A DNA stretch of 64,000 bases from Candidatus Woesebacteria bacterium (GCA_018060845.1 JAGOVG010000003.1:21759-85758); one strand, 5' to 3'; counted from the first letter of the stretch, positions 3,368 through 39,247 are shown. The notes: generated by a model from the letters alone, not told the origin. Translations and numbers: made by a program.

Positions 3368-4231
3368 ATGCGATACATTGTCCCCATCCTTGCGACTTTA
3401 ACCTTTCTCCTTTCCACTATCCTCGTACGTTCCGAAAGCCTGACTGTCTCACTCGTAGTCGGCGTTACCGAAGTCGTCTTTTCTGGCTACACTAGTCCGA
3501 GCAGTCAGATTGTAATCAAAGAAGATGGTAGTGTCGTAGGCACTACCACGAGCGATAGTAGCGGCCTCTGGACCAAAACAGTCTCGGTTGCCGTCCCAAC
3601 CACTCATACCTATGAGCTCTATGCTACTGATGCGAGTAGCATCGCAAGCGCAACCATTAGCTATTCTCTAAGTGTTGCAGGCGGTACAACAACTAGTATC
3701 AGCAACATTGTAATGCCCCCAACTGTAATTCTCTCTGGAACAACCTTATCTGGTCAAAGCTATCCTGGCAGCTCACTGACCGCAACTAGTGACCTAGGCG
3801 ACACCCTAACCCTAACTGTCCCAGGTAGCGGAATGTGGTCAACGGACCTAACCACTTGGCTCACTGGCGGCCCACACAATATAAGCGTCGTTACAACCGT
3901 TGGTAGCTTTATTTCTCTCAGTAGCACTAGTCTTACCTACACTACCCCTGCTCCCTCACCGAGCCCCACTACTACTCCTAACTCTAGTTCCAGTTTGAGT
4001 CCTACTCCAACCTCATCACCATCACCTTCTCCAAGCTCAGCACCTACATCCACACCCATCCCCTACGCAATCGAGATTTATGATCAAAACCAAGATGGTC
4101 GCCTCGGCCTAGGTGAACTCATTAGCGTCATCACCAGCTGGCTCAAACAACACCTACCCTGTGACTTAAACCGTGATACTCGCTGTGATCTGATCGACCT
4201 CTCGATCTTACTTTATTACTTTGAACGCTAA
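3368..4231 (+). CDS. Secreted Ser/Thr/Pro-rich protein with C-terminal two-repeat dockerin-like module
   Basis: Signal peptide. PT-rich linker (SPSPTTTPNSSSSLSPTPTSSPSPSPSS). Two Ca-loop-like segments, DQNQDGRLGLGE and DLNRDTRCDLID, each followed by a hydrophobic helix, as in type I dockerins. Confidence 0.5.
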   Translation: MRYIVPILATLTFLLSTILVRSESLTVSLVVGVTEVVFSGYTSPSSQIVIKEDGSVVGTTTSDSSGLWTKTVSVAVPTTHTYELYATDASSIASATISYSLSVAGGTTTSISNIVMPPTVILSGTTLSGQSYPGSSLTATSDLGDTLTLTVPGSGMWSTDLTTWLTGGPHNISVVTTVGSFISLSSTSLTYTTPAPSPSPTTTPNSSSSLSPTPTSSPSPSPSSAPTSTPIPYAIEIYDQNQDGRLGLGELISVITSWLKQHLPCDLNRDTRCDLIDLSILLYYFER

Positions 4232-4249
4232 AGAGGGTAAAATGAATCT

Positions 4250-5236
4250 ATGAACATATTAACTATCGCCAAGCAAGCCTTCTCCCTCATCCTCTACCTC
4301 ATCTTGGCATTTATCCTTATCCACTTTTTAGCAGTCTTTGGAGTCTTTTTAGCGCTCGCGATCCCCCTTCTCCACCTCGCTTTTTACCCCAATATCACTT
4401 GTTTTAGCTGCCACATTAGCAAACGTCCTCATTCATTTAAACACTCACTCCTCGATGCCACACTCATCCTGCTTCTAACCCTCCTCTCAATTCCTATTAT
4501 TTATGGCGAGACTAGATTGATTAGCTATATTTTAAGCAAAAGAACGACTCCTACGATTGCAACTATTGCCGAGTTTAGTATCCCCGCTCGTTCACAGTAT
4601 CCAGTCGGCACTATTTTCCCGCTCCCCCTCGAGCTCAGGCGGATTCCCTCTGCCATCAACGTTGCCCAGGCCGACCTCGCATTTGACCCCAACCTCCTCG
4701 AAGTCGTCGACATCACAACTGATGGGACCTTTGCCGAGTTTTTTGTTCAAAAAGAATTTGATAATCAAAAAGGCTACCTTAGGTTAAGCGGCGGCATCCC
4801 CAATCCTGGGTATAACCGAGCCGACGGCCTCATTGGCACCGCCTATTTCCGCGCCAAGTCAGCCGGTGCCACAACCCTTAGATACTTAGAGAGCTCGCTC
4901 GTCCTCGCTAACGACGGCCGTGGCACCAACCTCCTCTCCGACTACCCGACCATCAACCTCATCATCACTCCGGGAACAGGTATTGGCGATGCTACATCTT
5001 CTGCCCTCACCATCAAGAACATGGTTCAGGGCGACAGCGACAAAACCGTGCTTAGCTTTACCGAATATGGCGGCGATCTCCCCAAACCGCTCAACAACGT
5101 CAATGGCACAAGCACTACTATGCCTATTCCCACCAAGCCACAGTCACTGCCCGCCGAATCCCCGCTTCTTGCTCATTTGCTCTCATTTAACCAGCAAGTA
5201 CTCAGTATCTACCGCTACCTACTCTCCAATTTATAG
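4250..5236 (+). CDS. Membrane-anchored protein with cohesin-like domain
   Basis: Three N-terminal TM helices. Then a domain resembling type I cohesin, GTIFPLPLELRRIPSAINVAQADLAFDPNLLEVVDI...GLIGTAYFRAKSAGATTL. Compare the cohesin pattern G.P.VYFRGVPSKGIANCDFVFRYDPNVLEII...GVFAKIRATVKS. It lies immediately downstream of the dockerin-bearing gene. Confidence 0.45.
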   Translation: MNILTIAKQAFSLILYLILAFILIHFLAVFGVFLALAIPLLHLAFYPNITCFSCHISKRPHSFKHSLLDATLILLLTLLSIPIIYGETRLISYILSKRTTPTIATIAEFSIPARSQYPVGTIFPLPLELRRIPSAINVAQADLAFDPNLLEVVDITTDGTFAEFFVQKEFDNQKGYLRLSGGIPNPGYNRADGLIGTAYFRAKSAGATTLRYLESSLVLANDGRGTNLLSDYPTINLIITPGTGIGDATSSALTIKNMVQGDSDKTVLSFTEYGGDLPKPLNNVNGTSTTMPIPTKPQSLPAESPLLAHLLSFNQQVLSIYRYLLSNL

Positions 5237-5583: not shown

Positions 5584-6462
5584 CTAGGGTAGAATGATAT
5601 CTCCCTCCAAATCTGTCCGCATCACTGCCGTACCTACGCTCTCTAATCTGGCCAGTGCCTCCTTAGTCGGGTGACCATAAGTATTCCGCTCCCCTACACT
5701 GATCACTGCTATTTCTGGTCTGACAATCTCCAAGAAATCCTGGGAGCTCGCGTACTTTGACCCATGGTGACCTACTTTGAAGTAGTCAATATCATGTAGT
5801 AGACCACTCTTCACCAGTTCCTTCTCTGCCTGGAAACCCGCATCCCCCATGAGGAGAAAACGATGATTGTCCTCTAATATTTCTACAACAACACTTCGCT
5901 CATTCAAGTCACCTCTTTTGGCACTCGCTCCTAGTATCTGCTCACGAGCCACTTTATCCATTTGATCTGTAAACACCGCAACATATTCTTCGATAACTTC
6001 CGGTGGCCATAGGACCTTTAGCTCCATCTCGCTCTCACCTGACACTCTCACAACATCCCCCTGCTCCACCCCTACGACTGCAACTCCATACTCCCTGAGT
6101 TTGGCGATCATTCTATCTAGCGCCGAGCTCGCGTGTACCCCATCAGATGTTACAAACTGCATCACCTCGTATCTCTCTATTACAGAGCTCAAACCGTTCA
6201 TGTGGTCGTAATCGGTGTTGGTCAGTACTATGAGCTCAATAGTCCTATCCCAAAACGGCATATGTCGCTCCAGGCAAGATAGCATCCTCTCGCCGCTCGG
6301 CCCACCGTCCACTATTACTTGGAGACTCCCCTTAATCATCACTATCCCATCGCCCTGCCCGACGTCACAGGCAACCATGCGAAACTTAGAGTCTGGCCAC
6401 TGCAATACAACCAGCATTGCTAGTCCAACTAAGAGTCCCAGGCCATACCAATACTTCAGCAT
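5584..6462 (-). CDS. comEC: ComEC/Rec2 C-terminal metallo-beta-lactamase domain protein (separate ORF)
   Basis: Carries CDVGQGDGIVM and TNTDYDHMNGL, which is an MBL-fold HxHxDH-like motif typical of the ComEC C-terminal domain. It has its own N-terminal TM segment. Confidence 0.65.
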   Translation of the reverse strand: MLKYWYGLGLLVGLAMLVVLQWPDSKFRMVACDVGQGDGIVMIKGSLQVIVDGGPSGERMLSCLERHMPFWDRTIELIVLTNTDYDHMNGLSSVIERYEVMQFVTSDGVHASSALDRMIAKLREYGVAVVGVEQGDVVRVSGESEMELKVLWPPEVIEEYVAVFTDQMDKVAREQILGASAKRGDLNERSVVVEILEDNHRFLLMGDAGFQAEKELVKSGLLHDIDYFKVGHHGSKYASSQDFLEIVRPEIAVISVGERNTYGHPTKEALARLESVGTAVMRTDLEGDIILP

Positions 6463-6577
6463 AGCTCTATCATAGCGTGCTCTGAGAGATGGATGCCAAA
6501 TATTAATTGCTTTAGATTATAAATTTTTGTCCATACGTTAAGAAACTGTGGCGAATACTATTATCCAGCGAGTTCAA

Positions 6578-6599
6578 CCTGGTTTGGTCTCAAACCAGG
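6578..6599. other. Perfect hairpin in the gap between the two comEC ORFs
   Basis: CCTGGTTTG gtct CAAACCAGG: 9-bp stem with 4-nt loop. No adjacent U-tract. Confidence 0.4.
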
Positions 6600-6649
6600 A
6601 GTTCTACGAGCTATCGCATGAGCAAACAGTTTTAGTCGGACATCAAAAT

Positions 6650-7738
6650 TTATAAACTAATGTCACCTCCAAAGGCTCGTATCACCCACGCCATCCACCA
6701 AAGAGGCACATAAAGTAGATAAGATAGAGGAGCAACAAAGACCGAGAGAGCCGAGAGTAGCATTATCACTGGCACGACAGGCAGGATCAGAAGATTAACC
6801 AATACTCCAATCAAAGATACCCTCCCAAAGTGCCACCAAATCACTGGTGCGGTAGCGACAGTCGCCGCAAGCGTAGGGATCAGATAATCTTGGATCCACT
6901 TCCAATTTGAGAATTTGAGAATTTGTGATTTGAGAATTTCGCCTACATAAAGCAATCCAACTGTCGCTGACAGTGACAGCTGAAACCCAATATCAGCAAT
7001 AAGATCTGGTTTGACCATTAACATAATCCAGGAAGTAACCCACAATAGCCACCGAGCGTCATTCACTCTTCCCAGTATTACTCCGATCAAAGTTAGGCTC
7101 CCCATCACTCCAGCTCTAACCACCGATGGGCTCGCACCAGATAGTAATACATAACCACCTATCGCAGCAATCCCCAGCATCAGACTCCTTTGTTTACTCA
7201 GGATCCCTGTGAGAGCTCCCATTACAACAGCCGCCACCACACTCACGTTGTAGCCTGATGCCGCAATCACGTGTAGTGTTCCAGTTTTAACCAACATGTC
7301 ATAAAACTCTCTAGGCATACTCCGCTTAACACCAAGCAAGATCCCGATCGCGAGACTTGCCTGCGGCTCAGGCAAAATACCTTGTAGCCTCCCGACTGCC
7401 CAGTACCTGAGCTTTGCAATCTGCACTAGTCCCCAGTCTACTCCCTCTAATTCTCGATACTTTATACTTTCTACTTTCGAATCAATTACCCTCCCTCTCT
7501 CGTCCACTACTCCCTCTACCTCCACAATATCACCAGGCATAAAGTCTGTATAACCTTTGACTCTCACCTCCCACTCTGCTCGCTTAATCACAGTTTGGCT
7601 GTCTGTATGCTCCGGGTAATCAATTGTTGGGATGGTCAGCCTGACTCTCGTCCCCTCCACTATTCTTTCTGGCTGCCCAGTGACCAATCTAATACCCAAT
7701 ATGCTAATAAACACTAATACTAGAGCTAATCTTGTCAT
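6650..7738 (-). CDS. comEC: ComEC/Rec2 competence membrane channel domain (N-terminal OB/DUF4131 plus competence domain)
   Basis: Polytopic membrane protein with TGTLHVIAASGYNVSVVAAV, which resembles the ComEC competence-domain signature. It follows comEA on the minus strand. Confidence 0.7.
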   Translation of the reverse strand: MTRLALVLVFISILGIRLVTGQPERIVEGTRVRLTIPTIDYPEHTDSQTVIKRAEWEVRVKGYTDFMPGDIVEVEGVVDERGRVIDSKVESIKYRELEGVDWGLVQIAKLRYWAVGRLQGILPEPQASLAIGILLGVKRSMPREFYDMLVKTGTLHVIAASGYNVSVVAAVVMGALTGILSKQRSLMLGIAAIGGYVLLSGASPSVVRAGVMGSLTLIGVILGRVNDARWLLWVTSWIMLMVKPDLIADIGFQLSLSATVGLLYVGEILKSQILKFSNWKWIQDYLIPTLAATVATAPVIWWHFGRVSLIGVLVNLLILPVVPVIMLLSALSVFVAPLSYLLYVPLWWMAWVIRAFGGDISL

Positions 7739-8294
7739 ACACGCTTTGTGGTATCCGAGCTTTGCTAACTAGCTCTTCTGTTTTACTGTACGGCCTGTTA
7801 TCAACTATCGCTTGAGCTCTAGATGGACCAATACCCTCCAAGCGATCTAGCTCGCTAACACTCGCTGTATTAATATTTATTTTCTGGTTCTTCTGAGTTT
7901 CTGATACTCCGATATTCTGAGTTGTCCGATTATCTGAGTTTTCTGACTTACCAGGAATATATACCTTCTCCCCATCTTCTAGCTTTTGTGCAAGGTTAAG
8001 GTTGACTGTAATCCAAGCTCTGTCAGCACTAGCCGACAGCCCACCAGCAACTACCAGCGCGTCCCCAATCCTTGAGTTTGATGGCAATTTGTATACACCG
8101 GGTTTTTCTACGGATCCAGCGACATCCACCACTATTTCACCACCAACTTTAACCTTTTCACTTTCACCTTTCACCTTTATTATCTCCACCCTCACTTCTC
8201 TCGGCTTTACCTGATCCCATACCCCGTAAACTACTAATCCCAACCCCAATACTCCCAACAACAAAGTAACTCCCCATTTCCTCACCCACTCCAT
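7704..8294 (-). CDS. comEA: ComEA competence protein, helix-hairpin-helix DNA-binding
   Basis: N-terminal TM. SLBB-like middle region. C-terminal tandem HhH: ININTASVSELDRLEGIGPSRAQAIVDNRPYSKTEEL. Confidence 0.75.
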   Translation of the reverse strand: MEWVRKWGVTLLLGVLGLGLVVYGVWDQVKPREVRVEIIKVKGESEKVKVGGEIVVDVAGSVEKPGVYKLPSNSRIGDALVVAGGLSASADRAWITVNLNLAQKLEDGEKVYIPGKSENSDNRTTQNIGVSETQKNQKININTASVSELDRLEGIGPSRAQAIVDNRPYSKTEELVSKARIPQSVYDKISSSISVY

Positions 8295-8367: not shown

Positions 8368-10182
8368 GTGAAGAAAACAAGTAAAAAGTCATACCTATTC
8401 CCTCTCAGTATATTAGCTCTGGCTGTTCTGGTCGCAACCTCTTATCAACTACTAGCTCCCAAACCTACTCAACTCGGCATCAACCAGATCACAGTCTCCG
8501 GCACTCAGAGATATGTCGCACCAAACGGCAGCGATACTAATAACGGCTCAGAGGCGACACCTTACAAAACTCTAGGTAAAGCTATCAACTCTGCTGGACC
8601 TGGTGATGTTGTCTGGATTAAGCCAGGAACATATAAAGAGAATATTAAAATTAATAATAAAAAAGGTACCCCAGATGCACCAATCCGCATTGTGGGAACC
8701 AGCACTAGTCCAGCCGACTACCCTATCTGGGATGGTGGTAACACCGGCTATGCCAAAAATACAGACAACCCCGCACTCACCCTCACTAATAGTAGTTGGA
8801 TCACCATCGAGCGCCTCAAATTCCAGAGCTCAGGCCTCGCCTCTGTTTTTGTCGATGCTTCACACTATATAACATTCCGTAGGAACGTTATGGATTATCT
8901 CAAGTATGGAGTCCTCTCTCGCAACAAAAGTTCTCACCTACTAATCGAGTATAACGAGTTCTACCAGAGTTATCCTAGCAACTCCACCTGGACCCAGCTC
9001 AAAGACAGTAAATGGGAAGGCGGTGCCTACACTTCGTTTAGCGGCGCTGGCATGAATATTATCCGCAACAACTACTTTCACGACCAGTTTAACTCAGTAT
9101 TTATGTATAGAGACGTCCGAGTCGGCAATTATTACGACGCCAACGTCTGGATCTACAGAAATCGCTTTGAACGTATCGTCGATGACCCCTACGAGCCAGA
9201 GACCTATGCCGTCAACAACCATTTCTTCCACAACACACTAATCGATACACATCGCTTAATCTCTCTAGCTCCAGAAGATGGCAAAGCTCCTCTCCAAGGC
9301 CCTATCTATGTCTATGGCAATATGATGATCCTCAAAAAAGATCCAACAAAAGAGCCAACTAGAGAAAATTCTGCCTACAAGCTAGAGCTCTCTCCCAACA
9401 GCTGGGCAAACGGGATTTATCTTTTTAATAACAGTATCGATGTAAGCTATGCCGGCACCAATGGCTCAGGAATAGACTTTTTGAGTAGTACTGTTTCAAA
9501 CGTCACCCATATTAACCATGCTTACAAAAGTCTCAAGAACGTCTTTGGTTCTAGTAAATTAACACTCAAAAACAGTACCTTTAGCCACGACATGGCGACC
9601 AACTTAGGATATACCGAGAACCCAGGGTTTGCCCAGGATCCTGCTTTTACCAATTCAAGCGGCGAAAACCTAACACTATCAGCCAACTCTCCAGCAAAGG
9701 GCAAAGGGCGAGAGCTCACTGTTAGCAGCGGCTTTAGCAACAACAACGTGATCGCAGCTGGCGCCGATCTAGGCGCATTTAACGCGAGCGGGACCGATTT
9801 TAAATCATTCCCCTCACCTGCCTATATGACACCTCCAGGTGGCGAAGATAGTAGCTTCCCCGCTAACACTGCTTGGCCCGCAGACATTATCCCAGGATTT
9901 ACCCCTCCCTCAGGCCCTAGTTGGCTAACTGGAGTAGTAACTACACCCAATCCAACTGCCACCCCCACTCCTACGCCCACGCAGACCCCCTCTACCGTTC
10001 CATCAGCCACCCCGGCACCTTCTCCAAGCGTAATCCCCACTCCATCTGTAAGCGCAAAGCCTGGCGACCTAAATAACGACGGTGCAGTCGATATCAAAGA
10101 CTTTAATCGACTTATCTCAAACTTTGGTAATCCCTATACCATCCTCGACTTTAACTTGATCATCAGTAACTTTGGTAAATAA
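8368..10182 (+). CDS. Secreted right-handed beta-helix (pectate-lyase-fold) protein with C-terminal dockerin-like module
   Basis: GTG start. Signal peptide. Repeated PbH1-like turns (IEYNEFYQS, IIRNNYFHD, IYRNRFERI, NNHFFHNTLID, VYGNMMI, LFNNSIDVS). PT linker. Then GDLNNDGAVDIKDFNRLISNFGNPYTILDFNLIISNFGK. Confidence 0.55.
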   Translation: MKKTSKKSYLFPLSILALAVLVATSYQLLAPKPTQLGINQITVSGTQRYVAPNGSDTNNGSEATPYKTLGKAINSAGPGDVVWIKPGTYKENIKINNKKGTPDAPIRIVGTSTSPADYPIWDGGNTGYAKNTDNPALTLTNSSWITIERLKFQSSGLASVFVDASHYITFRRNVMDYLKYGVLSRNKSSHLLIEYNEFYQSYPSNSTWTQLKDSKWEGGAYTSFSGAGMNIIRNNYFHDQFNSVFMYRDVRVGNYYDANVWIYRNRFERIVDDPYEPETYAVNNHFFHNTLIDTHRLISLAPEDGKAPLQGPIYVYGNMMILKKDPTKEPTRENSAYKLELSPNSWANGIYLFNNSIDVSYAGTNGSGIDFLSSTVSNVTHINHAYKSLKNVFGSSKLTLKNSTFSHDMATNLGYTENPGFAQDPAFTNSSGENLTLSANSPAKGKGRELTVSSGFSNNNVIAAGADLGAFNASGTDFKSFPSPAYMTPPGGEDSSFPANTAWPADIIPGFTPPSGPSWLTGVVTTPNPTATPTPTPTQTPSTVPSATPAPSPSVIPTPSVSAKPGDLNNDGAVDIKDFNRLISNFGNPYTILDFNLIISNFGK

Positions 10183-17571: not shown

Positions 17572-18954
17572 ATGTCAAAGTATTCTATGTTTAATCACAT
17601 CTTGTTTCGCACTACAGCGTGTGTCTTTTTGACGATTGCACTCAGTTTCATATCTTCTTCTCCTGTACTAGCTCAGAGCACTCCAGGCATCACTACTGGC
17701 AGCATTCGCAAACTAGACGTCACTCCACCAAGCGGCGGCTACTTTGAGCTGCCATTTTTTATGACATCATTTAACAATACTCGTGTAATTAATGTTCCAA
17801 CAGCCTGGACTTTTACCTGCAATGTCACTGCCAACCCTCTTACTACTAGCATTAACACCAGTAACTCTAGTTGTCTCTTAACCAACAAGAGTCTCATCCA
17901 CCAAAAAGATTCTAGTGTCACTGCTCCCTACGCCCGCAACTATATAGCGACCGTTACCAACCACTACATTAATGTTGGTGGCTCACAGAGGCGCTATAGC
18001 GTTAACCACGGCGAAAATAAGAACGAAAAGGTTAATGGTGTAGCATATCAAAACTCAGTTAACCCTGATATCACTACTTCTACGTGTATGTCACAGTTAG
18101 TAAATGGTGTCTACCAAGACTGTAATGCTTCCTACCACTCGTTTATAACTCTAAGCTACGGTGACAGCTATCCACAGACAGATCTTGGACCCATCATATG
18201 GCCCGATCGCGGCTACTACTCCCCTCACCCTAATAACTCAGGAGTTCGCTGGAGCCACTCTTTTGTCCGCATTCCTCATGGTTTTGTTAATGACGGGTAC
18301 CTGTACGTTTACTACCACGAACAATCCTCCTACAACGATAGAATTGGTTTAAAAGTGGCTCGCGCTCCAATCAACAATCTGACCCCAGCAGCATTCAAAA
18401 AATACTCACAGGGTAGCTGGGTCCCAGCACTACCCTCTGGTTTTGACAACAACAGAATTACAGATTTTTATAATCAGCCAACCAGCGACTCTAGCCCTAT
18501 TATCCCAAGAGTTACTGGCGTCGCGCATATTTCTATGGCTGTCACCAAGACTCAATCAGGCTCATTTTTGGGGATCGAAGAAGCAATAGTCAATAATCAG
18601 TGGGCGCTGCGCCTCTACTCAACGACTGATCTAGTCAACTTTACTCTTCTCGGGACCGTTGCACAGGAGGCTAGTTATGCCGCAGGCAAACTTCATTACC
18701 CCGTTTTTCTAAACGCGGCTGGCGACAATAGTAGTCTAGTTGATACTAATAATTTTTACGTAGTCGGTAGTAGCCACACTGGCGAGATCTCGGTACTCCC
18801 GTTAAGCGTCTCTAACATGAAGCCCAGCAAGCCAGGTGACCTTAACCTTGATGGCACAGTCAATCTCATCGACTTTAATCTCCTAATCACCAATTTTGGT
18901 AACCCTTATACTATCCTCGACTTTAACTCGATCATTAGTAACTTTGGCAAATAA
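17572..18954 (+). CDS. Secreted protein of unknown function with C-terminal dockerin-like module
   Basis: Signal peptide. C-terminus KPGDLNLDGTVNLIDFNLLITNFGNPYTILDFNSIISNFGK, nearly identical to the tail of 8368-10182. Confidence 0.55.
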   Translation: MSKYSMFNHILFRTTACVFLTIALSFISSSPVLAQSTPGITTGSIRKLDVTPPSGGYFELPFFMTSFNNTRVINVPTAWTFTCNVTANPLTTSINTSNSSCLLTNKSLIHQKDSSVTAPYARNYIATVTNHYINVGGSQRRYSVNHGENKNEKVNGVAYQNSVNPDITTSTCMSQLVNGVYQDCNASYHSFITLSYGDSYPQTDLGPIIWPDRGYYSPHPNNSGVRWSHSFVRIPHGFVNDGYLYVYYHEQSSYNDRIGLKVARAPINNLTPAAFKKYSQGSWVPALPSGFDNNRITDFYNQPTSDSSPIIPRVTGVAHISMAVTKTQSGSFLGIEEAIVNNQWALRLYSTTDLVNFTLLGTVAQEASYAAGKLHYPVFLNAAGDNSSLVDTNNFYVVGSSHTGEISVLPLSVSNMKPSKPGDLNLDGTVNLIDFNLLITNFGNPYTILDFNSIISNFGK

Positions 18955-18963
18955 TACCAACCA

Positions 18964-19614
18964 TTGACAAGGATAGTCACCCTCTGTCATATTAGAGATA
19001 TGCCAAGTATTCTACTCAAACGCGACTACCTAGCCGGGTCTTACTACCACATCAAGCATCAGGCCAAAAAAGATACACTATTGTTTCAGACTGAGGCCGA
19101 CTACAAAACTTTTATCCTGCTCCTCTCTTACTACCTCCGCTTCCCCGATGCGACCCCTCTCTCTTGGGTCAAAAGACTCAACCCCAAGACAGTTGTCGAC
19201 AAACGAAACAAGAGCGAGCTGGGGGCTAGCCCTGTCACCCTCCACTCTTTTCTCCTCCTCCCCGACCACTTCCACCTGGTTCTCAAAGAAAACCAAGGGG
19301 GCAAAAAACCCGGGATCAGCAACCTCATGCGCAGGCTCTCAGTTGGCTACGCCATGTACTACAACAAAACTTACGGAGTAAAAGGCACCATCTATCAAGG
19401 CAAGTACAAAAATATTCAGATCAACCAGGACGACCTATCTCCACTCGTGCAGTCGCTCCACGCTCACGACAACGTCAACTCGACATATATGAATAGCCCG
19501 CTGCACAGTAGCGCTAGCGACTATGGTAGTAGCGCCCGACCATGGATCACACCACTACCTCTAGGTATGGAAGATAATGCCAAACTAAATCCTCGCTTAC
19601 TGCTAGACAAATAA
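18964..19614 (+). CDS. IS200/IS605-family Y1 (HuH) transposase-like protein, REP-associated tyrosine transposase-like
   Basis: YYHIKHQAKKDTLLF resembles the N-terminal YHxxxxxKxR motif. PDHFHLVL is an HuH motif. YQGKY provides the Tyr motif. There is no tnpB partner. The start is possibly the Met at 19000. Confidence 0.5.
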   Translation: MTRIVTLCHIRDMPSILLKRDYLAGSYYHIKHQAKKDTLLFQTEADYKTFILLLSYYLRFPDATPLSWVKRLNPKTVVDKRNKSELGASPVTLHSFLLLPDHFHLVLKENQGGKKPGISNLMRRLSVGYAMYYNKTYGVKGTIYQGKYKNIQINQDDLSPLVQSLHAHDNVNSTYMNSPLHSSASDYGSSARPWITPLPLGMEDNAKLNPRLLLDK

Positions 19615-20362: not shown

Positions 20363-20364
20363 CT

Positions 20365-21279: not shown

Positions 21280-21293
21280 AGTGATACATATAT

Positions 21294-22712: not shown

Positions 22713-23677
<965 letters not shown>

Positions 23678-23695
23678 CTGAGATATACTGGTTTC

Positions 23696-34200: not shown

Positions 34201-34453
34201 CTCAACCGCAGGTGTCAGCACCCTCCTCTCACCCGACACTGAGCTAACGATCGATAGTCCCTATGTCACTGCCAACTCCCTAGTCTATTTGACACCTACC
34301 ACAAATACTGACAACAAAGTTCTTTTTGTCAAAGCTAAGGTTAGTTGTCCCGAAGAATCTGAACTATGCACACCATCATTCACAGTCGGGATAGATGCAC
34401 CAGCGTCGACTGACATCGGCTTTAACTGGTGGATAATCGAGCTCAAACAATGA
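25244..34453 (+). CDS. Giant (3069 aa) single-pass membrane surface protein. Two N-terminal phage-integrase SAM-like domains, TM, Gly/Thr/Asn-rich beta-repeat ectodomain with LamG-like domain and S74-type intramolecular chaperone domain.
   Basis: Uninterrupted 9.2-kb ORF. Two N-terminal repeats resemble the XerD N-terminal domain (LTAFRTYLASLGLSSISRKLYSADI and YLKDNHLTDSSIRSYKSDITQYLTYL). TM at about aa 272-298. LamG/ConA-like segment at about 30.88-31.41 kb (WHHVAITSNGSTIAVYIDGQ...LDELMI). SDERLKTNI...VNYNWKD at 32.96-33.25 kb matches the PF13884 tail-fibre chaperone motif. Confidence 0.75.
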   Translation: MKNTVQLPSTHTALLTAFRTYLASLGLSSISRKLYSADIARLLASSLFSDLNVATLTNPKNYASYLSQPELTSSSTLLRRTLASLRQFGTFLNQSFDLPSPITNLSLASNTLSNTISNSSSKYIKACMEYLKDNHLTDSSIRSYKSDITQYLTYLESHHPSTQIGSLLTDKNLQNYTDLLTHLDTQSPATIERKIKTIRRFLNWYSSTKLQVVVSDNTKIPASSSHISPLSSSVQVNGVNSAQAELYSDQPQTQLPDHKYNNVKTSNYRKLRLPTLRMILSGVILLVLVSTLSIFSYRQFGRDASLTAAFPSTPVTPNRQLSFQGRLENASGTPITAATNFVFKLHDASSGGSELYSSGTCSITPDTDGVFSTQIGGTCGAGIASSVFTENADVWLEVTVGAETLTPRQQIATVAYALNSETIQGFPISATVSAIRNTVVPMNQWGEIIVGEQSPRLTGVSGTFQISAPSLSLVTATGTNGNITLAPDGTGQVNVNGNTTTTNFFNVSNAQLTTGSLITGTAANNNTGFNLLDLLSGASPTSKFSVSDSGDTTIAGTLSLPNSNNMTGVANGVQFNEGIFVGGGTTYYFDVGGELNAAGGAFSNGLSIINDSALSAFGQVNLGDGGETIHLNGTSITLTGFDCTGNTNGGALTTNGSGVLQCSDDDGGGGGSGGLWQDTTLGAISPNNSTWDVLVGGTATSSAKIGLININSGTPTINLANQASNLAVIDNTSNALRILEGANNYLALTTTNASENLSFGNTTTNPTFSFLGTGLTTLSGGLTVNGITTIGNNSATVAINSSDWDITTVGNMSGIGTISSDGDWTNSQATPSIFLTDSTASSDDYSVNVDANVFNITNATDSRIELDFAGNGSINFGDNTATKTIDIGGVTSSAIDTINIGTNATAADIISIGNNHASTTLALTGGTAWSITTAGNLTTNNTTVNGNTILGNAITDTIDFQGRVLQDADLIPITTTGTNDLGSSALAWDNLYTNAAYFAGGTSFYVDASGNARFNDIIAADTANPGITVGDGSTGFLKVGSLTVGDNNASVVTFDTNSDATPEFQLYNTGSATASGDITMGGQLQVGRFENTPTAIGAGTMIFNTTTNSFQCYNGTAWTSCGGTLFSNSNASVADGSYITVTHNLASNDLLSNAWINAQGVWKSLDASYKPAIAWEGKDTQKGIYHNALNSYIPSSETGTGTNTLHEGMIFDTFEDTTKTDSANTTVSTNQQIGDDGSSNFVTLDQRIQGGRVGLVGGQTLSTGETDNDGQAYLGSNTVNDMYYYDRAKDSVPEVLVELGIDPNWYNGVTLSVATGSASYSQSGTLADKNPNLTTTYNGSLIKATGTDSTPRTIFITIKSPTTFDWTNYEGDSATAVTITPGTAQALGSTGVSATFTATNYNVGDVFKIASWYIEAESATRGAKQQFPERSYVVASGTAGAGFIDVIDADTQKLWIKFTEGTGYYLRSTANRVPHTVDMLNGKLYFGQKDSNNGILERINFDTDSLHLWTPSAKYTYDQGISQRNTASNILTINTTETTVANDVNDVSAAVIPNQPSQQMTLTGWRVHPGNGTATLTSGVDFQYPFTDTPQIQVSIVGRTTSTTTPKSLKDCSTNVDSATISAYNNNPANFYARFSNTTFSASYNYCFVWSATGTVAPKQIVAVATGTTGADGGTTIINETDGKKADILIGSQNASVLWQNKVALAQDGTLYVVLNNQSTATTLNVYAGASGIPEVISQEPTWAAYRNGFYYLDLQTQGWSATGPVIKGVGTNSDEVKSLSVTSGTSSISPGANTIYVGTSTGVTVLNEANIEPDYNSDEPSNGSVKYYTKDYVSEEMIGDVRGMWGMYDTDTDIDTAETTDDVSIKNLNLTANNANSTGFTSTSGVRGEGITFDGTDDYFSRADDASLSFSNNTMSASYWVKRNGNPSSAEYIMLKGITTWEYASAITTAGKIISWLFTSAGATVATVTSNLSVTDNEWHHVAITSNGSTIAVYIDGQLDNNSTSFTSAMTNTASSFYVGDRSDIANSEFQGSLDELMITGTALSSSQVRNIYQVGYRALQSHTSSGLGTGGADTNQQLGYISTGTSSVGVVQPDYNNQYMYVGTNSTTLGALSKIQLNSDTNIKTYNSSANVPTGGVLTLDEDITSLAVGETLYAVGSAASGVKTMGLDNNATATSGNFVSKTYALPKNIGSAVLWVSPIMDSNDGSNTITVQASNDGGSNYATCTLVNTNTNYDAPEREYACTFTAADNDLKVRFQMARGNTKTNTYVVQYGISWLGETGFRVEQADNNNVRLYNFSGEAQNLKLNITGASTSALANPWTDGGSYIYATGYETLRIYDGAGTNYLGLSHDGTYATLGYNGTDFINLTSTGDLLPETNDTQALGSDSFRWEDVFLGPGSVHVGTSTTDEGVISYDTSGNILNIGTDSTSNGDIAFFTDDLYLDKSSGFIGLGDITPDYLLDVAGTAGFDSTLTLTGSAANVALGSNYLSGDGGDEGVYVDSSGNVGIGNASPDRPLQVTRSTTGIPMRLQNNFTDSSEYWVVGPSDSDNFAIFNDATTGMYIAYGATSWTANSDERLKTNIEALTSVEGLASLLELTPVNYNWKDVNTNQSKQTGFLAQEVQRLFPGLVSLGETTTITLADGSTQTIEAPLGVNYTGFIPYIIKGIQEQQAQISQMFQNLITPQVNTAMISPLAPGQSIEITAPVVISPTTPNLDTPTLIVDGEIEATTISARVAQLETIRAETITARDIVADTITANSIVGLDAKIASLSAGISESDFDSISERIRSRLASLTGGEANAQDVPAPPSIPETVIEYSELSTASATLATADIDFVTVNQYLAVIGSATITSLDITSDLYTNRIGSKDNLLAIQPLGGIVNIADSTFVVDSSGQVMVNGDLTVSGRILAESGNLGSLELGSPLDASASSALGNLLSIYNEQGQAVATIDASGSANLAGLTTQLVTIASGGTSATQSGLISSQTSSNSTAGVSTLLSPDTELTIDSPYVTANSLVYLTPTTNTDNKVLFVKAKVSCPEESELCTPSFTVGIDAPASTDIGFNWWIIELKQ

Positions 34454-35151
34454 GACAATCAATGTGGTTTAATAGATCTATGCTCAACTCTAGACGACGT
34501 GGTTTTACATTAATCGAATTACTAGTAGTTTTGGCTATCCTAGCTATCTTAATGATAATTGCTTTGAGTATGGTTCAGACCAATAGAGACAAAGCAGTAG
34601 ATAGCAAAATTAAAGCCGATCTTCAAAGGTTAAAGATTGTCTTCGAAGATTACCATGCTGACAACGGCTGCTACCCGCCACCCAGTTTTTTCGACGATCC
34701 TAGTGATTGTGGCGCTAGCCACCTCGCTCCATACTTAAGCACGATTCCCTGCAATCAAAAAGGCGGTAATCCCTACACTCTCGAACGTGACCCCACAGGG
34801 TGTGAGTGGTTCAAGATTTATGCTGATCTATCACTCTCAACCGATCCTCAAGCCCTAGAACTCTGTTCACCCTCTGGATCCAGTCTTGGCAACTATGCAA
34901 CCAGCTCAGACAACGTAGTCCCGAGTGTCCTGTGTGATGCTCAACCTAGCTCATCTGCGCCGAGCTCTGCTCCGGGTGTGTCACCATTACCACAAGGTCA
35001 CAACTACTATTACTGCAGTGCACAGGGCAACTGCACCAGTTTTAACGAAGAATCTCACGTCTGTACACCCTATTTTGTAGATAATCCTAACTGCAATGGA
35101 ACCATCAGTCCTTGCACTACTCAGTTTGTTGGATCTTGCACCTCGCTATAA
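34450..35151 (+). CDS. Type IV pilin-like protein (prepilin N-terminal cleavage/methylation domain) with Cys-rich C-terminal domain
   Basis: GFTLIELLVVLAILAILMIIAL carries G-1/F+1 and Glu+5. The leader is about 18 aa. The ATG overlaps the giant gene's TGA as ATGA. The C-terminal domain has 14 Cys. Alternative start ATG 34480. Confidence 0.75.
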   Translation: MRQSMWFNRSMLNSRRRGFTLIELLVVLAILAILMIIALSMVQTNRDKAVDSKIKADLQRLKIVFEDYHADNGCYPPPSFFDDPSDCGASHLAPYLSTIPCNQKGGNPYTLERDPTGCEWFKIYADLSLSTDPQALELCSPSGSSLGNYATSSDNVVPSVLCDAQPSSSAPSSAPGVSPLPQGHNYYYCSAQGNCTSFNEESHVCTPYFVDNPNCNGTISPCTTQFVGSCTSL

Positions 35152-35169
35152 ATTACAAACTATCGTAAC

Positions 35170-37053
35170 ATGATATATATGACTACAAAATCTATATTAC
35201 TGGTCACACTAATCACACTGTGCTCGCTCTTCTTTTGGACAATCACCCCTAACTATTTTGCGACCCCAAAAGAGGTTGTCTACTCACTAGTTATATTAGT
35301 AATTGGCATTATCACAATACACTCCCTACTAGTCAAAAAAACTCTCCGTCTCCCAAGCATCTATACTATTGCCCCACTCATTTTGTTCATAGTATCAGTT
35401 ACTTTATCTCTCATTTTCAACCCAGAGGGGAGGCCAGAAGCACTAGGCAGCAAAGCTAGCATTCTCCTATCTCTACCAATTATCGCTCTATACTTTAATT
35501 ACCACGCAACTAGCGCTCTCTCCAAGATCCTAATCAACAGCCTCGTCTGGGTCGGCTCACTCCTCTCTCTCCACAGCCTACTTTCACTAATTACACTGTC
35601 CAAACTAATCTGGTTACCACAGTACATGCAATCACAGGCTTTCACGCCGACTGGCTCATACCTCACTACCCTCTTCCTCATCGCAGTTAGTCTATCGATC
35701 TCAATCTACCAGCTCAAAAAGAATACTCAAGGCGTCTATTACAAGGTTGCACTCCTCATCATCCACATTGTCGCAATCGTTGCAATCGTGGCACAGATGC
35801 TACCTGGCAACCCACTCTCACCACAACTCTTACCTTACGGTTCGAGCTGGAGCATCGCGCTAGATGCCCTCAAATCGATCAGATCACTATTTTTTGGGAT
35901 TGGTATTTCCAACTATAGTCTCCTCTATACCAGTGTCAGACCTCTCGCAATTAATGCAAGCGAACTATTTAATCTACTACCTCAGAGTGCGACCAGCGAA
36001 TTTCTCACCATTCTGCCGACCGCAGGCCTACTCACCTCAATATCACTGATTTATTTGATGCTAAAAACGGTCTATCAATCTCGTGCAACATTGCTTTTTG
36101 CACCTACAATACTCACAGTTATTACTTTCTTCCTTATCCCCTCCTCCCTGATCCAGTATCTCTTACTCTTTACTATTTATGGACTCGTCTCAAGAGAGCC
36201 GAGCACAGATCACGTTTCGCTCAAACACAAAAGTAATATTATAATTTCTATTCTAGTATTATTTTTAACAGGAGCTTATCTCTACCCAACAGTTTCCAAC
36301 TACGTAAGTGAATATTTCATTAATCGCGCGCGCGTTGCAACCATAGCAGGTGAGAGTCAAAAAGCCTACGAATCTCATCTTAGAGCACTCTCTATCTCGC
36401 CACGTATCAGCAACTACTACATTAGTTTTGCCGATATCAACTTTAGGCTAGCTCTCGCACTCTCGCAAAAACCAAATCTAAGCGAAGAAGAGCGCCAAAA
36501 CGTATCGAGGTTAATCCAACAGAGTATCGAATCATGCAAAAATGCCATCGCGCTAAGACCCAATGATAGTCGATCTTGGGTAGCGCTAGCCAAGATTTAT
36601 CAAAATTTAATCACTGTCGCTCAGGGTGCAGATAATTTTGCCCTAGAGGCATACACCAAAGCAGTCTCACTAGACCGTGCTAACCCTGAGCTTAGGGTTG
36701 AGCTGGGCAATCTCTTCTCACAACTAGCTTCGCTTCCCAAGAATGCTTCTAGCTCGAGCGCTTTGAGGGAGCGAGCTCTCAACGAGATCTCAACTTCCCT
36801 CCAGCTCAAGAACGACTTTGCTGCAGCATATTACAGCCTTGCTCGGATTTTTGTCCAAACCAACGAGACCGATAAGGCTCAGGCAGCATATGACCTAGCA
36901 CTCAAATACCTCGATCCAAATAGCCCAGAATATGCTCGAGTTCTTTCCGAAAAGAACCAGCCAGAGATCACAAAGACACCCTCACCAACCCCACTCCCAT
37001 CACCAATTGGTGGTGCAGCACTAAATCTGCCTACAGCAGAATCAAATAACTAA
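35170..37053 (+). CDS. Polytopic membrane protein with C-terminal TPR repeats (O-antigen ligase/Wzy_C-like; candidate pilin glycosyltransferase)
   Basis: At least 10 predicted TM helices in the N-terminal 400 aa. Then TPR-like repeats (AYESHLRALSISP..., ALRPNDSRSWVALAKIYQNL, AAAYYSLARIFVQTNETDKAQAAYDLALKY). It lies directly downstream of the pilin gene. Confidence 0.4.
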   Translation: MIYMTTKSILLVTLITLCSLFFWTITPNYFATPKEVVYSLVILVIGIITIHSLLVKKTLRLPSIYTIAPLILFIVSVTLSLIFNPEGRPEALGSKASILLSLPIIALYFNYHATSALSKILINSLVWVGSLLSLHSLLSLITLSKLIWLPQYMQSQAFTPTGSYLTTLFLIAVSLSISIYQLKKNTQGVYYKVALLIIHIVAIVAIVAQMLPGNPLSPQLLPYGSSWSIALDALKSIRSLFFGIGISNYSLLYTSVRPLAINASELFNLLPQSATSEFLTILPTAGLLTSISLIYLMLKTVYQSRATLLFAPTILTVITFFLIPSSLIQYLLLFTIYGLVSREPSTDHVSLKHKSNIIISILVLFLTGAYLYPTVSNYVSEYFINRARVATIAGESQKAYESHLRALSISPRISNYYISFADINFRLALALSQKPNLSEEERQNVSRLIQQSIESCKNAIALRPNDSRSWVALAKIYQNLITVAQGADNFALEAYTKAVSLDRANPELRVELGNLFSQLASLPKNASSSSALRERALNEISTSLQLKNDFAAAYYSLARIFVQTNETDKAQAAYDLALKYLDPNSPEYARVLSEKNQPEITKTPSPTPLPSPIGGAALNLPTAESNN

Positions 37054-37055: not shown

Positions 37056-37814
37056 ATGAAAGCTCGAAATACAAAATCCTGGAAAACACTCATAATCCCC
37101 ACTCTCGTAGTCGTGATTACCTTGCTCTATCTCTTCATCAAACCTAAGCCGATCCAGATCGCCGAAATTACTAATGTCCCAGGCAGCGTATCACTAACTC
37201 TGAGCGCCACATCTCCACAGCTCAAGCTCAACCAGCCCAGTACAGTCACACTCTCATATAGCTCTCCAACCGAAAGATTCACCGCCATCCAGACCGATAT
37301 TATCTTTGATCCGACCTACTTTAATGTCTCATCATTTACCCCCTCTCCCACCATGGAGGCCATCCTCCAGACTGCTACTGTCAAAAATGGCAATACTATT
37401 TCTTTTGCTTACGGGGTCGCACCTGGTAGTCAGGGTTTAATCGGTAGCGGTAGCATCATGAGCTTTACTGTCACACCAAAAAAAACTGGCTCTAGCCCGC
37501 TAACTCTGCAGAATACCTTAGTCGCGACAATAGGTCGTCCCACCAACGCTCTCCAGAGCGTGGCTAATCCCACATTTACCGTGATCAACCCATCCCCCTC
37601 AATATCCCCCACACCGAGCCCCACTCCCTTACCTTCAATTACTCCGACACCTAGTCCAGTGCCCTCTCCTTCACCATCTCCCACCTATAAGGCAGGTGAT
37701 CTCAATAAAGATGGTCAGGTCAACTTTGTCGACTTTAATGTACTCATTACCGACTTTGGGACCAAATATCACATTGTCGACTTTAACAACATCATTACCA
37801 ACTATGGCAAGTAG
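37056..37814 (+). CDS. Cohesin-like domain protein with C-terminal dockerin-like module (adaptor-scaffoldin-like)
   Basis: N-terminal TM or signal. Cohesin-like segment VTLSYSSPTERFTAIQTDIIFDPTYFNVSS...ISFAYGVAPGSQGLIGSGSIMSFTVTPKKTGSSPLTL. PT linker. Then KAGDLNKDGQVNFVDFNVLITDFGTKYHIVDFNNIITNYGK. Confidence 0.5.
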   Translation: MKARNTKSWKTLIIPTLVVVITLLYLFIKPKPIQIAEITNVPGSVSLTLSATSPQLKLNQPSTVTLSYSSPTERFTAIQTDIIFDPTYFNVSSFTPSPTMEAILQTATVKNGNTISFAYGVAPGSQGLIGSGSIMSFTVTPKKTGSSPLTLQNTLVATIGRPTNALQSVANPTFTVINPSPSISPTPSPTPLPSITPTPSPVPSPSPSPTYKAGDLNKDGQVNFVDFNVLITDFGTKYHIVDFNNIITNYGK

Positions 37815-37852
37815 TTGTTTGCATACCTCGCAAATAATGCTACATTAGTTAT

Positions 37853-39247
37853 ATGAAGAAAAAGATCACTCGTACCAAAGCTAAAGTTTCCAAGAGGATC
37901 AAGTCCAAATCAACCTCCCTTTCTCCACTCCCACTCATCTTAGTTTTAGCCTTAATCATTATCTCAGGCTACTATGTCTACCGCTCACTCCTATCCAGTT
38001 CTAGTACCCCGATCCAGATCGCCGAGATCAAAAATGCCACCGGGTCGGTTAATCTAAACTTAAATAGCACTAAGACTTCCCTCGCCCCTAACCAGGATGC
38101 AACAGTTACCTTAACCTACGACTCCCCAACCGACAAATTAACAGTCATTAGTGGTGAGATCAGCTACGACCCCGCAGTCTTGACTGTTAGCAACTTTGTC
38201 AAAGGCGATGGTTTCCCCACCGAGTTTGCAGCAGCCACAGCCGCAAATGGCAAAATAACCTTTACCTACGGCGTCGCGGTCGCCGCCGGATCAGGTTTAA
38301 CTGGTCAAGGCAATATCTTGACATTCAAAGTCAGATCCAAGGCAGTCGGCTCCTCCACCCTCGCAATCACTGATGCTACCCAAGTACTCGTAACTGGCAA
38401 CAGCAATAATGCACTTCGTGAGATTACCAATACTACAGTCGCAGTTGCAGACCCAGCAGTAAGCCCCTCCACTGCCGCGAGCGCTGCAGTCTCTCCATCA
38501 CCCAGTACCACTGTAACAGTTAGTCCGAGCCCAGCGGTATCTCCATCTGCAGCTGCATCCATTATTCCCTCAACTCCTGCCTCTGCCTCACCTATTGCTA
38601 GCGTGCCAGTAGTCCAAAAACCGGCCGCTCCCACTAACCTCGTATACAACTGCTACAGTGACGGCAAAAGGATCACCTTGCGCTGGAATGCAGTTGCCAA
38701 TGTTGATAGCTACGAAGTAGTCTTTGACCAAAAAGATGGCGACAACGACCAGACAAAGTCAGCCACTCGCGCCGAGATCGACCTAGATATCAAAAATAAC
38801 ACGAATTACAAATGGAGTGTTGTTAGCGTTAAGGATGGTGTTAAGAGCGATGCCAGCAGTGTAAATGATATTAAGTGTAGTGGTGACGTCGCACAAGCTG
38901 CTACCCCTACTCCTACTCCCACGCCAACAACTACTCCCACACCCACCCCAGCTCCAACCAAAAAACCTATTACAGAGCAGATTGCAGGTATCTTCAAACC
39001 CAAGTCTCCCTCACCTACTCCTACCCCCAAGCCAACCTTAGCTCCGACAGACTTTACTACGCCCAACCAGAATAGTAATGTCATTGCCACACCCACTCCA
39101 ACACCTGGCAGCCTCGGCGACATCTTTACTTCCCCCTCAGCTACTCCAGTCGTCGCAGCCAACACGAACAATACCAGCTTCTTCTCCAAAATCCTCTTAG
39201 GATGGCAAGCACTCTTCATTAGATTCATCGAAACGCTGACAAATTAA
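37853..39247 (+). CDS. Cohesin-like domain, FN3-like domain and Pro/Thr-rich linker surface protein
   Basis: N-terminal TM. Cohesin-like segment VTLTYDSPTDKLTVISGEISYDPAVLTVSNFVKGDGF...KITFTYGVAVAAGSGLTGQGNILTFKVRSKAVGSSTLAI. FN3-like NLVYNCYSDGKRITLRWNAVANVDSYEVVF. Long PTPTPT linker. Confidence 0.5.
   Translation: MKKKITRTKAKVSKRIKSKSTSLSPLPLILVLALIIISGYYVYRSLLSSSSTPIQIAEIKNATGSVNLNLNSTKTSLAPNQDATVTLTYDSPTDKLTVISGEISYDPAVLTVSNFVKGDGFPTEFAAATAANGKITFTYGVAVAAGSGLTGQGNILTFKVRSKAVGSSTLAITDATQVLVTGNSNNALREITNTTVAVADPAVSPSTAASAAVSPSPSTTVTVSPSPAVSPSAAASIIPSTPASASPIASVPVVQKPAAPTNLVYNCYSDGKRITLRWNAVANVDSYEVVFDQKDGDNDQTKSATRAEIDLDIKNNTNYKWSVVSVKDGVKSDASSVNDIKCSGDVAQAATPTPTPTPTTTPTPTPAPTKKPITEQIAGIFKPKSPSPTPTPKPTLAPTDFTTPNQNSNVIATPTPTPGSLGDIFTSPSATPVVAANTNNTSFFSKILLGWQALFIRFIETLTN

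Follow-up and report, generated by a model that had tools for sequence, protein, structure and literature searches.

Candidate phyla radiation (CPR) bacteria are very small, for the most part uncultured and believed to live fixed to other cells, and the organization of their surface is largely unknown. A stretch of 64,000 nucleotides (nt; hereafter the window) from a metagenome-assembled genome (MAG) of Candidatus Woesebacteria, a Microgenomates-type CPR lineage, was analyzed for cohesin and dockerin modules carried by six open reading frames (ORFs; 3368-4231, 4250-5236, 8368-10182, 17572-18954, 37056-37814 and 37853-39247). An initial annotation, made from the sequence alone, had proposed a cohesin-dockerin set of CPR-like origin in this region; all six ORFs were present at these coordinates, and the assignment to Candidatus Woesebacteria agrees with the proposed origin. 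The modules probably belong to a cohesin-dockerin system of the non-cellulosomal kind, by which secreted proteins are held on the Woesebacteria cell surface. In this scheme, three proteins, each with one cohesin and an N-terminal hydrophobic anchor, would serve as sockets, and dockerin derivatives placed C-terminally on secreted proteins after a Pro/Thr-rich linker would serve as plugs. The plugs would be of two kinds, a 43-residue short dockerin and a two-repeat EF-hand-like dockerin on an immunoglobulin (Ig)-like protein, and their calcium-dependent binding to the cohesins would keep the secreted proteins at the cell surface.

Single-loop dockerins have been described in Ruminococcus flavefaciens, in which the naturally truncated group-2 dockerins, of about 40 amino acids (aa) with one calcium loop, bind cohesin with high affinity (PMC12270676). 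They bind the cohesin of ScaE, which is anchored to the cell (Duarte et al., J Biol Chem 2025, PMC12270676; PDB 9gvb), and each is essentially half of a group-4 dockerin, with the loop and one cohesin-binding helix, followed by an R. flavefaciens-specific helix 4, five sequences being assigned to the group (PMC12270676). The CPR tail has in common with group 2 a length of about 40 residues, a single calcium loop and a C-terminal position on the cargo; one group-2 member is borne by a cohesin-like module, as is the case among the CPR tails, and ScaE, as is proposed for the CPR sockets, is a single cohesin anchored at the cell surface. However, the CPR tail keeps both repeat helices and has lost only the linker and loop 2, whereas group 2 consists of one repeat plus helix 4. 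Chain 9gvb_B matched the profile of the CPR tail weakly (E 0.13) and at positions 4-26 only (loop and helix 1), so that the two truncations look independent, and the CPR tail would be a second, independent natural example of a dockerin losing one calcium loop. The two families also differ in size, with at least 92 clusters at 50% identity for the CPR tail and five sequences for group 2. The single-loop dockerin had been called unusual in the initial annotation; group 2 provides a published functional precedent for it (PMC12270676).

OlpA and OlpC of Clostridium thermocellum (3ul4, 4dh2) resemble the CPR sockets in having one cohesin, and tether single type I dockerin enzymes directly and without a scaffoldin, as the CPR sockets would; the cohesin model described below matched the fold of both structures, and the tail model that of 4dh2. 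Attachment of OlpA and OlpC is via SLH domains. The CPR cohesins have N-terminal hydrophobic helices instead, and the dockerins of OlpA and OlpC, unlike the short tails, are canonical two-loop modules. By analogy, the system would resemble such single-cohesin surface anchors (ScaE, OlpA, OlpC) rather than a cellulosome proper. Cohesin and dockerin modules are used outside cellulose degradation, as proposed here, in the non-cellulosomal amylosome of Ruminococcus bromii (PMC4611034) and in the glycosidase complexes of Clostridium perfringens (2jh2, 2vo8, 2w1n) and Archaeoglobus fulgidus (2xdh; a cohesin), the cohesin structures of the latter two being among the best fold matches of 37056-37814; these systems differ in that they occur in other lineages, have canonical dockerins and in part possess multi-cohesin scaffoldins.

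Within the CPR, a Microgenomates MAG, Cand. Shapirobacterales, was reported to express cohesin and dockerin proteins, as detected by metaproteomics (bioRxiv 10.1101/2021.08.21.457207), and a dockerin-domain protein of a Saccharibacterium, SEML1_0315, was found to be essential (PMC10633639). Both reports concern the same superphylum and the same domain families as the window, and Shapirobacterales belong to the same class-level group (Microgenomates), but they are one-sentence domain annotations that do not include the short dockerin, the anchoring architecture or the gene linkage. Single-loop dockerins and CPR cohesin and dockerin domains are already published, and the present finding is not categorically new; the shortened CPR dockerin is a large unannotated family. 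Together with the single-cohesin membrane anchors, this 43-residue family, missed by annotation, provides a testable parts list for one CPR lineage, relevant to CPR surface biology and to minimal dockerin design. The secreted proteins probably kept at the cell surface include glycoside hydrolases as well as beta-helix/lyase-like and Ig-like proteins. The short tails may also provide protein engineering with very small affinity tags, as is the stated aim for the short dockerins of R. flavefaciens (PMC12270676).

The short dockerin tail and its family

Pfam matches were judged by the gathering cut-offs (Cohesin PF00963, 24.1 bits; Dockerin_1 PF00404, 22.9 bits; Beta_helix, 25.9 bits; DUF1565, 20.3 bits), and local hidden Markov models (HMMs) representing cohesin, short tail, canonical dockerin and EF-hand/dockerin module were built and run over all ORFs of the loci. 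In a six-frame scan, the calcium loop with its tail occurred in exactly three copies in the 64 kb, each of which stopped one residue short of the stop codon of a long ORF (8368-10182, 17572-18954 and 37056-37814) and scored 75-84 bits with the local tail profile, and which are therefore not attributable to chance. The tail comprises 43 aa with a single DxNxDGxV[ND]xxD loop in place of the two tandem repeats, of about 22 residues each, of a type I dockerin, and is laid out as calcium loop, helix 1, a four-residue turn (NPYT; TKYH in 37056-37814) and a repeat-2 helix. The second helix copies the repeat helix (DFNxLISNFG, DFNxIISNFG) and aligns to canonical helix 3. The end of the tail had been described as strictly conserved; ILDFNxIISNFGK was present in two of the proteins, and the third reads IVDFNNIITNYGK.

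Homologs of 37056-37814 (P0004-6 and P0017) share its membrane helix, cohesin and Pro/Thr linker but end in a two-repeat dockerin of canonical form, and have precomputed PF00404 and PF00963 matches. The window tail aligned with these canonical dockerins over its whole length, interrupted by a single gap of about 14 residues, which corresponds to the inter-repeat linker and positions 1-8 of calcium loop 2. When 49 tails were compared with 17 canonical CPR dockerins by hhalign, the result was 99.05% (E 2e-18) with a single gap of 14 columns. The canonical two-repeat dockerin of P0145, in both repeats of which the same DYNLLVxNFG helices occur, looks from its sequence like the undeleted form of the short tail. 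Against PDB sequences, the best matches of the tail profile were the dockerins 2y3n_B (E 1e-8), 5nrm_B, 4fl4_A, 4dh2_B and CelS; PDB dockerins matched tail positions 4-27, several of them with each of their two repeats. Modelled by itself with AlphaFold2, the tail was predicted with confidence (pLDDT 87.8) to form the loop, a helix at 20-28, a tight turn and a helix at 36-45, that is, the calcium loop followed by antiparallel helices 1 and 3 as expected of a dockerin fold, and the five PDB chains returned for this model by Foldseek were dockerins without exception. Because of the single-gap alignments, the profile match, P0145, the PDB matches and the tail model, the short tail is read as an internally deleted dockerin in which one calcium loop and both repeat helices are kept.

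With Pfam Dockerin_1, the three tails scored 13.8 (8368-10182), 15.4 and 16.1 bits, each over about 20 of the 57 model positions. At least four dockerin proteins had been claimed in the initial annotation; profile homology supports the three tails and, as described below, 3368-4231, while the Pfam scores were below the cut-off or nil. The cargo of 8368-10182, which had been taken for a right-handed beta-helix, matched Beta_helix and DUF1565 (31.3 bits each), both above the cut-offs, and weakly resembled the PL9 pectate lyase 1ru4 and the rhamnogalacturonan lyase 5olq; its tail scored 84 bits with the local profile. The cargo domain of 17572-18954 gave no match to Pfam, NCBIfam or PDB sequences, nor did its homologs. 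In one of these (6229-8067 in locus L027), a C-terminal DUF4214 (41.8 bits) replaces the short dockerin, which, judged from the sequence, would be a further case of C-terminal module exchange on one cargo.

A word-index protein search with the 43-aa tail gave one weak match only. When 1.84 billion representatives were searched exhaustively with a profile, 9,085 matches were obtained at E <=1e-3 and 273 at E <=1e-10, and many further tails were thus recovered, as the initial annotation had suggested might be the case. The whole 43-residue profile was matched in one stretch in 92 of the best 150 representatives, corresponding to the at least 92 clusters mentioned above, and the match lay within 5 residues of the C-terminus in 88 of these 92. 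The family consensus is KPGDLNgDGkV[ND]IFD[YF]NLL[IV]SKFGNPYTIFD[YF]NxL[VI]xN[FY]GK, in which conservation is highest in the two helices that would contact the cohesin. Dockerin_1 was matched at E <1e-3 in only 10 of the 92 representatives, and NCBIfam has no model for the short tail. Pfam domains on the 92 tail proteins included Beta_helix (11), Cohesin (6), DUF1565 (4), GH43, GH130, DUF4434 and SLH (3 each), and GH10, Laminin_G_3 and F5/8 type C (2 each), a cargo that, by its domain content, is typical of dockerin-bearing proteins.

In a pattern scan of 185,579 species-representative genomes, the tail was found at 15 loci in 9 assemblies, which were named Woesebacteria, Microgenomates, Gottesmanbacteria, Patescibacteria or unclassified, five being labelled Pseudomonadales or Gammaproteobacteria. 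The MAGs with the latter titles were CAZSVV, CAYILS, CAYGFH, CAZOUV and CAYGFS (L005, L006, L008, L009, L011 and L015-L017). CAZSVV (GCA_964610445.1) is a close relative of the window, with synteny common to both, and for this reason its label looks wrong; the short tail otherwise occurred only in CPR or unclassified MAGs, and the Pseudomonadales and Gammaproteobacteria labels of the short-tail MAGs are probably wrong. As far as sampled, the short tail is restricted to Microgenomates-type CPR.

Cohesin proteins and their gene neighbours

The three cohesins of the initial annotation were all recovered above the Pfam gathering score, namely at 29.9 bits in 4250-5236 (aa 108-222, nt 4571-4915), 26.5 bits in 37056-37814 (aa 63-160) and 32.5 bits in 37853-39247 (aa 70-196). 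The cohesin of 4250-5236 is more divergent (hhalign to cohesin alignment A3, 87%), and 37853-39247 has no dockerin module. The local HMM scan of all window ORFs detected no cohesin or dockerin-like module beyond the six ORFs. In the NCBI record, KBD69_02170 (100% identical to the 3368-4231 protein), KBD69_02175, KBD69_02240, KBD69_02290 and KBD69_02295 are all named 'hypothetical protein', and the beta-helix protein 8368-10182 is named 'DUF1565 domain-containing protein'; the cohesin and dockerin modules of the window are absent from public annotation.

One of the three cohesin proteins, 37056-37814, was modelled with AlphaFold2 from an alignment of 12 sequences. The model comprised an N-terminal helix (aa 7-28), a beta-sandwich (aa 45-177) with pLDDT >90, and a C-terminal part consisting of a disordered Pro/Ser/Thr linker and a tail of two helices. 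In a Foldseek comparison with the PDB, the top 50 matches were essentially all cohesin modules, with E-values down to 8e-10 and a target TM-score up to 0.84 against solved cohesins; they included CipA (1aoh, 1anu), OlpA/OlpC (3ul4, 4dh2), A. fulgidus 2xdh and C. perfringens cohesins. The comparison with CipA proposed in the initial annotation thus returned a match to 1aoh. On the basis of this model, a beta-sandwich (jelly-roll) fold superposable on solved cohesins can be assigned to 37056-37814 with confidence; its fold matches were a mixture of cohesin types I, II and III.

Two sequence features of the cohesin proteins were observed in addition. A conserved amphipathic or hydrophobic helix closes the anchoring cohesin proteins (39140-39244; 5165-5233); in 37853-39247 it reads GSLGDIF...FFSKILLGWQALFIRFIETLTN, with counterparts in P0003 and P0014, and the C-terminus of 4250-5236 is LLAHLLSFNQQVLSIYRYLLSNL. 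This helix is possibly a second membrane contact or an oligomerization helix. A short conserved motif, PIQIAEI(T/K)N in the window pair (37140-37165; 37991-38016), follows the N-terminal membrane helix and could be a processing site; QEIREKAAP stands in its place in relatives with canonical dockerins, and the motif-bearing cohesin homologs were P0003-P0006, P0012, P0066, P0152 and P0165.

Gene linkage was examined in loci chosen by the presence of the tail alone (15 genome loci and 78 metagenome loci, the latter amounting to 518 kb). A cohesin ORF was found in 7 of the 15 genome loci, usually directly adjoining the tail gene, and, among the 16 metagenome loci that reached 10 kb or more, in 12; the 78 metagenome loci together contained 129 short-tail ORFs, 45 cohesin ORFs and 14 cohesin-plus-dockerin ORFs. 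In 41 cases a tail ORF and a separate cohesin ORF stood in one metagenome locus; the gap between them had a median of 14 bp and was at most 200 bp in 24, about 2% being expected with unrelated positions in a 10-kb flank. The recurrent order in the clusters was one or more cargo-tail genes, a cohesin gene, a cohesin-plus-dockerin gene and a cohesin gene, and short and canonical dockerins occurred together in clusters L013, L014, L052, L053 and L059. The pairing of 37056-37814 with 37853-39247 was conserved in L001, L002, L008 and L012, and in L001 and L002 the pilin-like, TPR membrane-protein, cohesin-plus-tail and long-cohesin genes stood in the order of the window. In this lineage, the one to which the window belongs, the cargo genes are dispersed.

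A single cohesin was present in 64 of the 66 cohesin ORFs of the window and 98 loci. The other two are the same gene, with a second match of -0.5 bits that is judged spurious from its score. No multi-cohesin scaffoldin was therefore found among the 66 ORFs. A strongly hydrophobic segment of 19 residues lay N-terminal to the cohesin in all 65 evaluable ORFs.

The sixth protein, 3368-4231, matched Big_6 (31.5 bits) and, at its C-terminus, only weakly EF-hand_1 (E 0.027), with no Dockerin_1 match in Pfam. Its two loops, DQNQDGRLGLGE and DLNRDTRCDLID, are both present, but neither is an exact fit to the D-x-N-x-D-G-x-V-[DN]-x-x-D pattern by which it had been annotated, and in a single-sequence search of the C-terminus the best PDB matches were the EF-hands of neuronal calcium sensor and calcineurin B, with no dockerin. 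The family of 23 homologs (identity down to 33%), in which the C-terminus is strongly conserved, gave a different result. The conserved region consists of a helix, an EF-hand-like first loop and then CDLNRDxxCNLIDLSILLYYFER, a dockerin-type loop plus helix with an invariant Cys on either side of the loop, and the family profile (A7) aligned with canonical dockerins (A6) by hhalign at 98.6% (E 9e-16), both repeats being covered. The distant homolog P0193 has a Pfam PF00404 dockerin at the position of the module, and homolog P0192 has a transmembrane anchor there instead, as is expected if the module serves anchoring. The downstream gene 4250-5236 begins after a gap of 18 nt (19 nt in the initial annotation), and in L019 an Ig-like protein of 53% identity is followed by a gene with a Pfam cohesin and then by ComEC/ComEA genes, as in the window. 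The module was accepted, with less certainty than the short tails, as a putative divergent dockerin derivative paired with the adjacent cohesin, and 4250-5236 is likely, from this arrangement, to be the partner of 3368-4231. An ordinary EF-hand protein is disfavoured by the family profile, the dockerin of P0193 and the conserved cohesin neighbour. The Cys pair flanking the second calcium-type loop (C-DLNRDxx-C; 4193-4219, aa 276-284 in the window) was invariant in 17 of 17 aligned A7 members, which suggests a cross-loop disulfide that could replace or stabilize calcium binding.

Probable surface retention and its alternatives

The Ig-like protein would plug into the cohesin of 4250-5236, and the short dockerins of 8368-10182, 17572-18954 and 37056-37814 into the cohesins of 37056-37814 and/or 37853-39247, the latter being likely, from its modules, to act as a membrane receptor for short dockerins. 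The combination of a cohesin and a dockerin in 37056-37814 had been compared to an adaptor scaffoldin; both modules are present in the one protein, but it has its own membrane helix, and no multi-cohesin scaffoldin occurred among the 66 cohesin ORFs. Because socket, plug and membrane helix are united in one protein, 37056-37814 could chain to its neighbour instead of serving as a soluble adaptor.

Several observations weigh against surface retention by cohesin-dockerin pairs. Every short tail scored below the threshold with Pfam Dockerin_1. The Foldseek E-values of the tail model were non-significant (0.46 at best), as is expected for 48 residues, and the fold match is not fully independent, since canonical dockerins were contained in the alignment of the tail model and solved dockerins in the training of AlphaFold. 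No cohesin gene adjoins the tail gene in 8 of the 15 genome loci, nor the two cargo genes of the window itself, and tail genes exceed cohesin genes in the metagenome loci (129 versus 45). Furthermore, the hydrophobic N-terminus of the cohesin proteins, taken here for an anchor, could instead be a signal peptide that is cleaved off.

Part of this evidence would be equally expected if the short tail bound a non-cohesin target in a calcium-dependent manner, such as a cell-wall or S-layer glycan or the tail itself, or were a secretion or sorting tag, the cohesins having other ligands. Dockerin-like modules without an obvious partner occur in many organisms; in addition, the tails outnumber the cohesins by about 3 to 1, many loci are without a cohesin, one calcium loop is gone, and the Pfam dockerin scores remain sub-threshold. 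This explanation is nevertheless unlikely: tail genes adjoin cohesin genes with the short median gap given above, canonical and short dockerins are mixed in the cohesin clusters L013, L014, L052 and L053, and the two helices that would contact the cohesin are the best conserved parts of the tail. Single-loop dockerins are, moreover, functional in R. flavefaciens (PMC12270676). As for sorting, the tail end ...IISNFGK has no hydrophobic span and no Arg/Lys cluster, and thus lacks the hydrophobic helix and basic end of LPXTG or PEP-CTERM signals; PEP-CTERM-like ends (VPEP...RRRR) were encountered in the library search on other multi-repeat dockerin-like proteins and never on short-tail ones. The initial annotation had considered that the tail might prove to be a sorting signal on cargo without partner cohesins, but cohesin genes stood beside tails in many independent loci, and the sorting-signal reading was rejected because of the missing hydrophobic and basic end, the dockerin homology and the linkage to cohesin genes.

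A true cellulosome-like multi-enzyme complex degrading plant polysaccharide would agree with the GH10, GH43, GH130, beta-helix/PL9-like and lectin-like domains among the family cargo, and the expressed cohesin and dockerin proteins of Cand. Shapirobacterales were read as a cellulosome by Bell et al. (bioRxiv 10.1101/2021.08.21.457207). It is improbable here, however, as each of the cohesin proteins carries a hydrophobic anchor at its own N-terminus, no scaffoldin occurs in the 66 cohesin ORFs, and no cellulase or carbohydrate-binding module was found in the window, whose cargo is one beta-helix protein, one unmatched protein and one Ig-like protein; a classical cellulosome was rejected because no multi-cohesin scaffoldin was found. 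That the cohesin-plus-dockerin membrane proteins mainly bind each other, forming a chained or lattice coat or a host-cell bridge and not an enzyme display, would accord with the recurrence of the layout of transmembrane helix, cohesin, linker and dockerin, the dockerin being short in some cases and canonical in others (P0004-6; 6 representatives out of the 92; 14 ORFs), and with the position of these genes within clusters of two or three single-cohesin genes, but is very improbable as the main function, for it leaves many tail-bearing enzyme-like cargo proteins unexplained and is compatible with surface retention rather than exclusive of it.

Within the surface-retention system, the short dockerin, with its two near-identical helices, four-residue turn and one calcium ion, might be a minimal symmetric plug capable of dual orientation or of cohesin bridging, which, together with the membrane proteins that carry both cohesin and plug, would give a self-assembling chained coat on the ultra-small CPR cells. 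This suggestion is speculative and rather doubtful. If true, such a coat would organize enzymes, adhesins and possibly host-cell contact, and would be a distinct envelope-organizing principle of Microgenomates, not a borrowed part of the cellulosome.

Other features of the window

The six ORFs and the genes directly upstream of the cohesin pair are listed in Table 1.

Table 1. Positions and module organization of the six ORFs and of the upstream context genes (coordinates in the window)
Position	Strand	Features	Basis
3368..4231	+	Secreted Ig-like (Big_6) protein, Pro/Ser/Thr linker, C-terminal two-repeat EF-hand/dockerin-like module (about nt 4073-4228)	Pfam, profiles
4250..5236	+	Membrane protein: N-terminal hydrophobic region (several segments), one cohesin, C-terminal amphipathic helix	Pfam Cohesin, hhalign
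8368..10182	+	Secreted right-handed beta-helix (DUF1565, PL9-like N-terminus), Pro/Thr linker, 43-aa short dockerin (nt 10051-10179)	Pfam, tail profile
17572..18954	+	Secreted protein (460 aa), domain of about 380 aa and 43-aa short dockerin (nt 18823-18951)	Tail profile (84 bits)
34429..37053	+	Context: pilin-like gene (34429-35151) and polytopic TPR membrane protein (35170-37053), directly upstream of cohesin pair	Pfam
37056..37814	+	N-terminal membrane helix, one cohesin, Pro/Ser/Thr linker, short dockerin (nt 37683-37811)	Pfam, AlphaFold2 model
37853..39247	+	N-terminal membrane helix, one cohesin, FN3-like module, Pro/Thr linkers, conserved C-terminal amphipathic helix	Pfam

The pilin-like protein matched N_methyl (prepilin N-methylation) at 40.4 bits and is rich in Cys and Ser/Pro in its C-terminal half, and the TPR membrane protein had multiple C-terminal TPR matches. 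These genes and the cohesin pair follow a gene for a giant protein of 3,069 aa (25244-34453), in which Laminin_G_3 scored 83.5 bits and the intramolecular-chaperone domain Peptidase_S74 scored 52.7 bits.

Two paralogous surface-protein operons were recognized at 366-5236 and 19634-24955. They encode Ig-like proteins that begin with a signal peptide and have a transmembrane helix at the C-terminus (366-1406, 2408-3355, 20365-21279 and 22712-23677), and which gave sub-threshold WxLIP_PGBD/DUF916, fn3_5 and FixG_C matches, Ser/Thr/Ala-rich proteins ending in ...TATPAY, ...ATPTY or ...TATGTF (1249-2349, 19634-20362 and 21294-22712), and, in each operon, a Big_6 or Big_13 protein. The operons are reminiscent, by analogy, of the Csc/WxL cell-surface clusters of Gram-positive bacteria; a cluster of the WxL/Csc type proper was rejected, as the WxLIP_PGBD matches were only sub-threshold and no WxL domain was found in the operons. 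In a relative (locus L020), a protein of 3,290 aa carrying Peptidase_M23 and Laminin_G_3 is likewise encoded just upstream of the Ig-like operon.

The competence genes are split on the minus strand at 5584-8294, with ComEA (SLBB and HHH_3) at 7704-8294 and the 'Competence' domain of ComEC (6650-7738) and the metallo-beta-lactamase domain (5584-6462) in separate ORFs, likewise in L019. Directly after the tail gene 17572-18954, a 216-aa ORF with a TTG start (18964-19614), for which no Pfam match at E <1e-3 was obtained, contains ...LLPDHFHLVLKE..., which we take to resemble the HUH motif found in Y1 transposases, either IS200-type or REP-associated. A search of the window with Rfam returned one tRNA and nothing else. 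The guanine-cytosine (GC) skew was negative in every 4-kb block (-0.06 to -0.29) irrespective of gene strand, and was weakest within the giant gene, at 28-32 kb.

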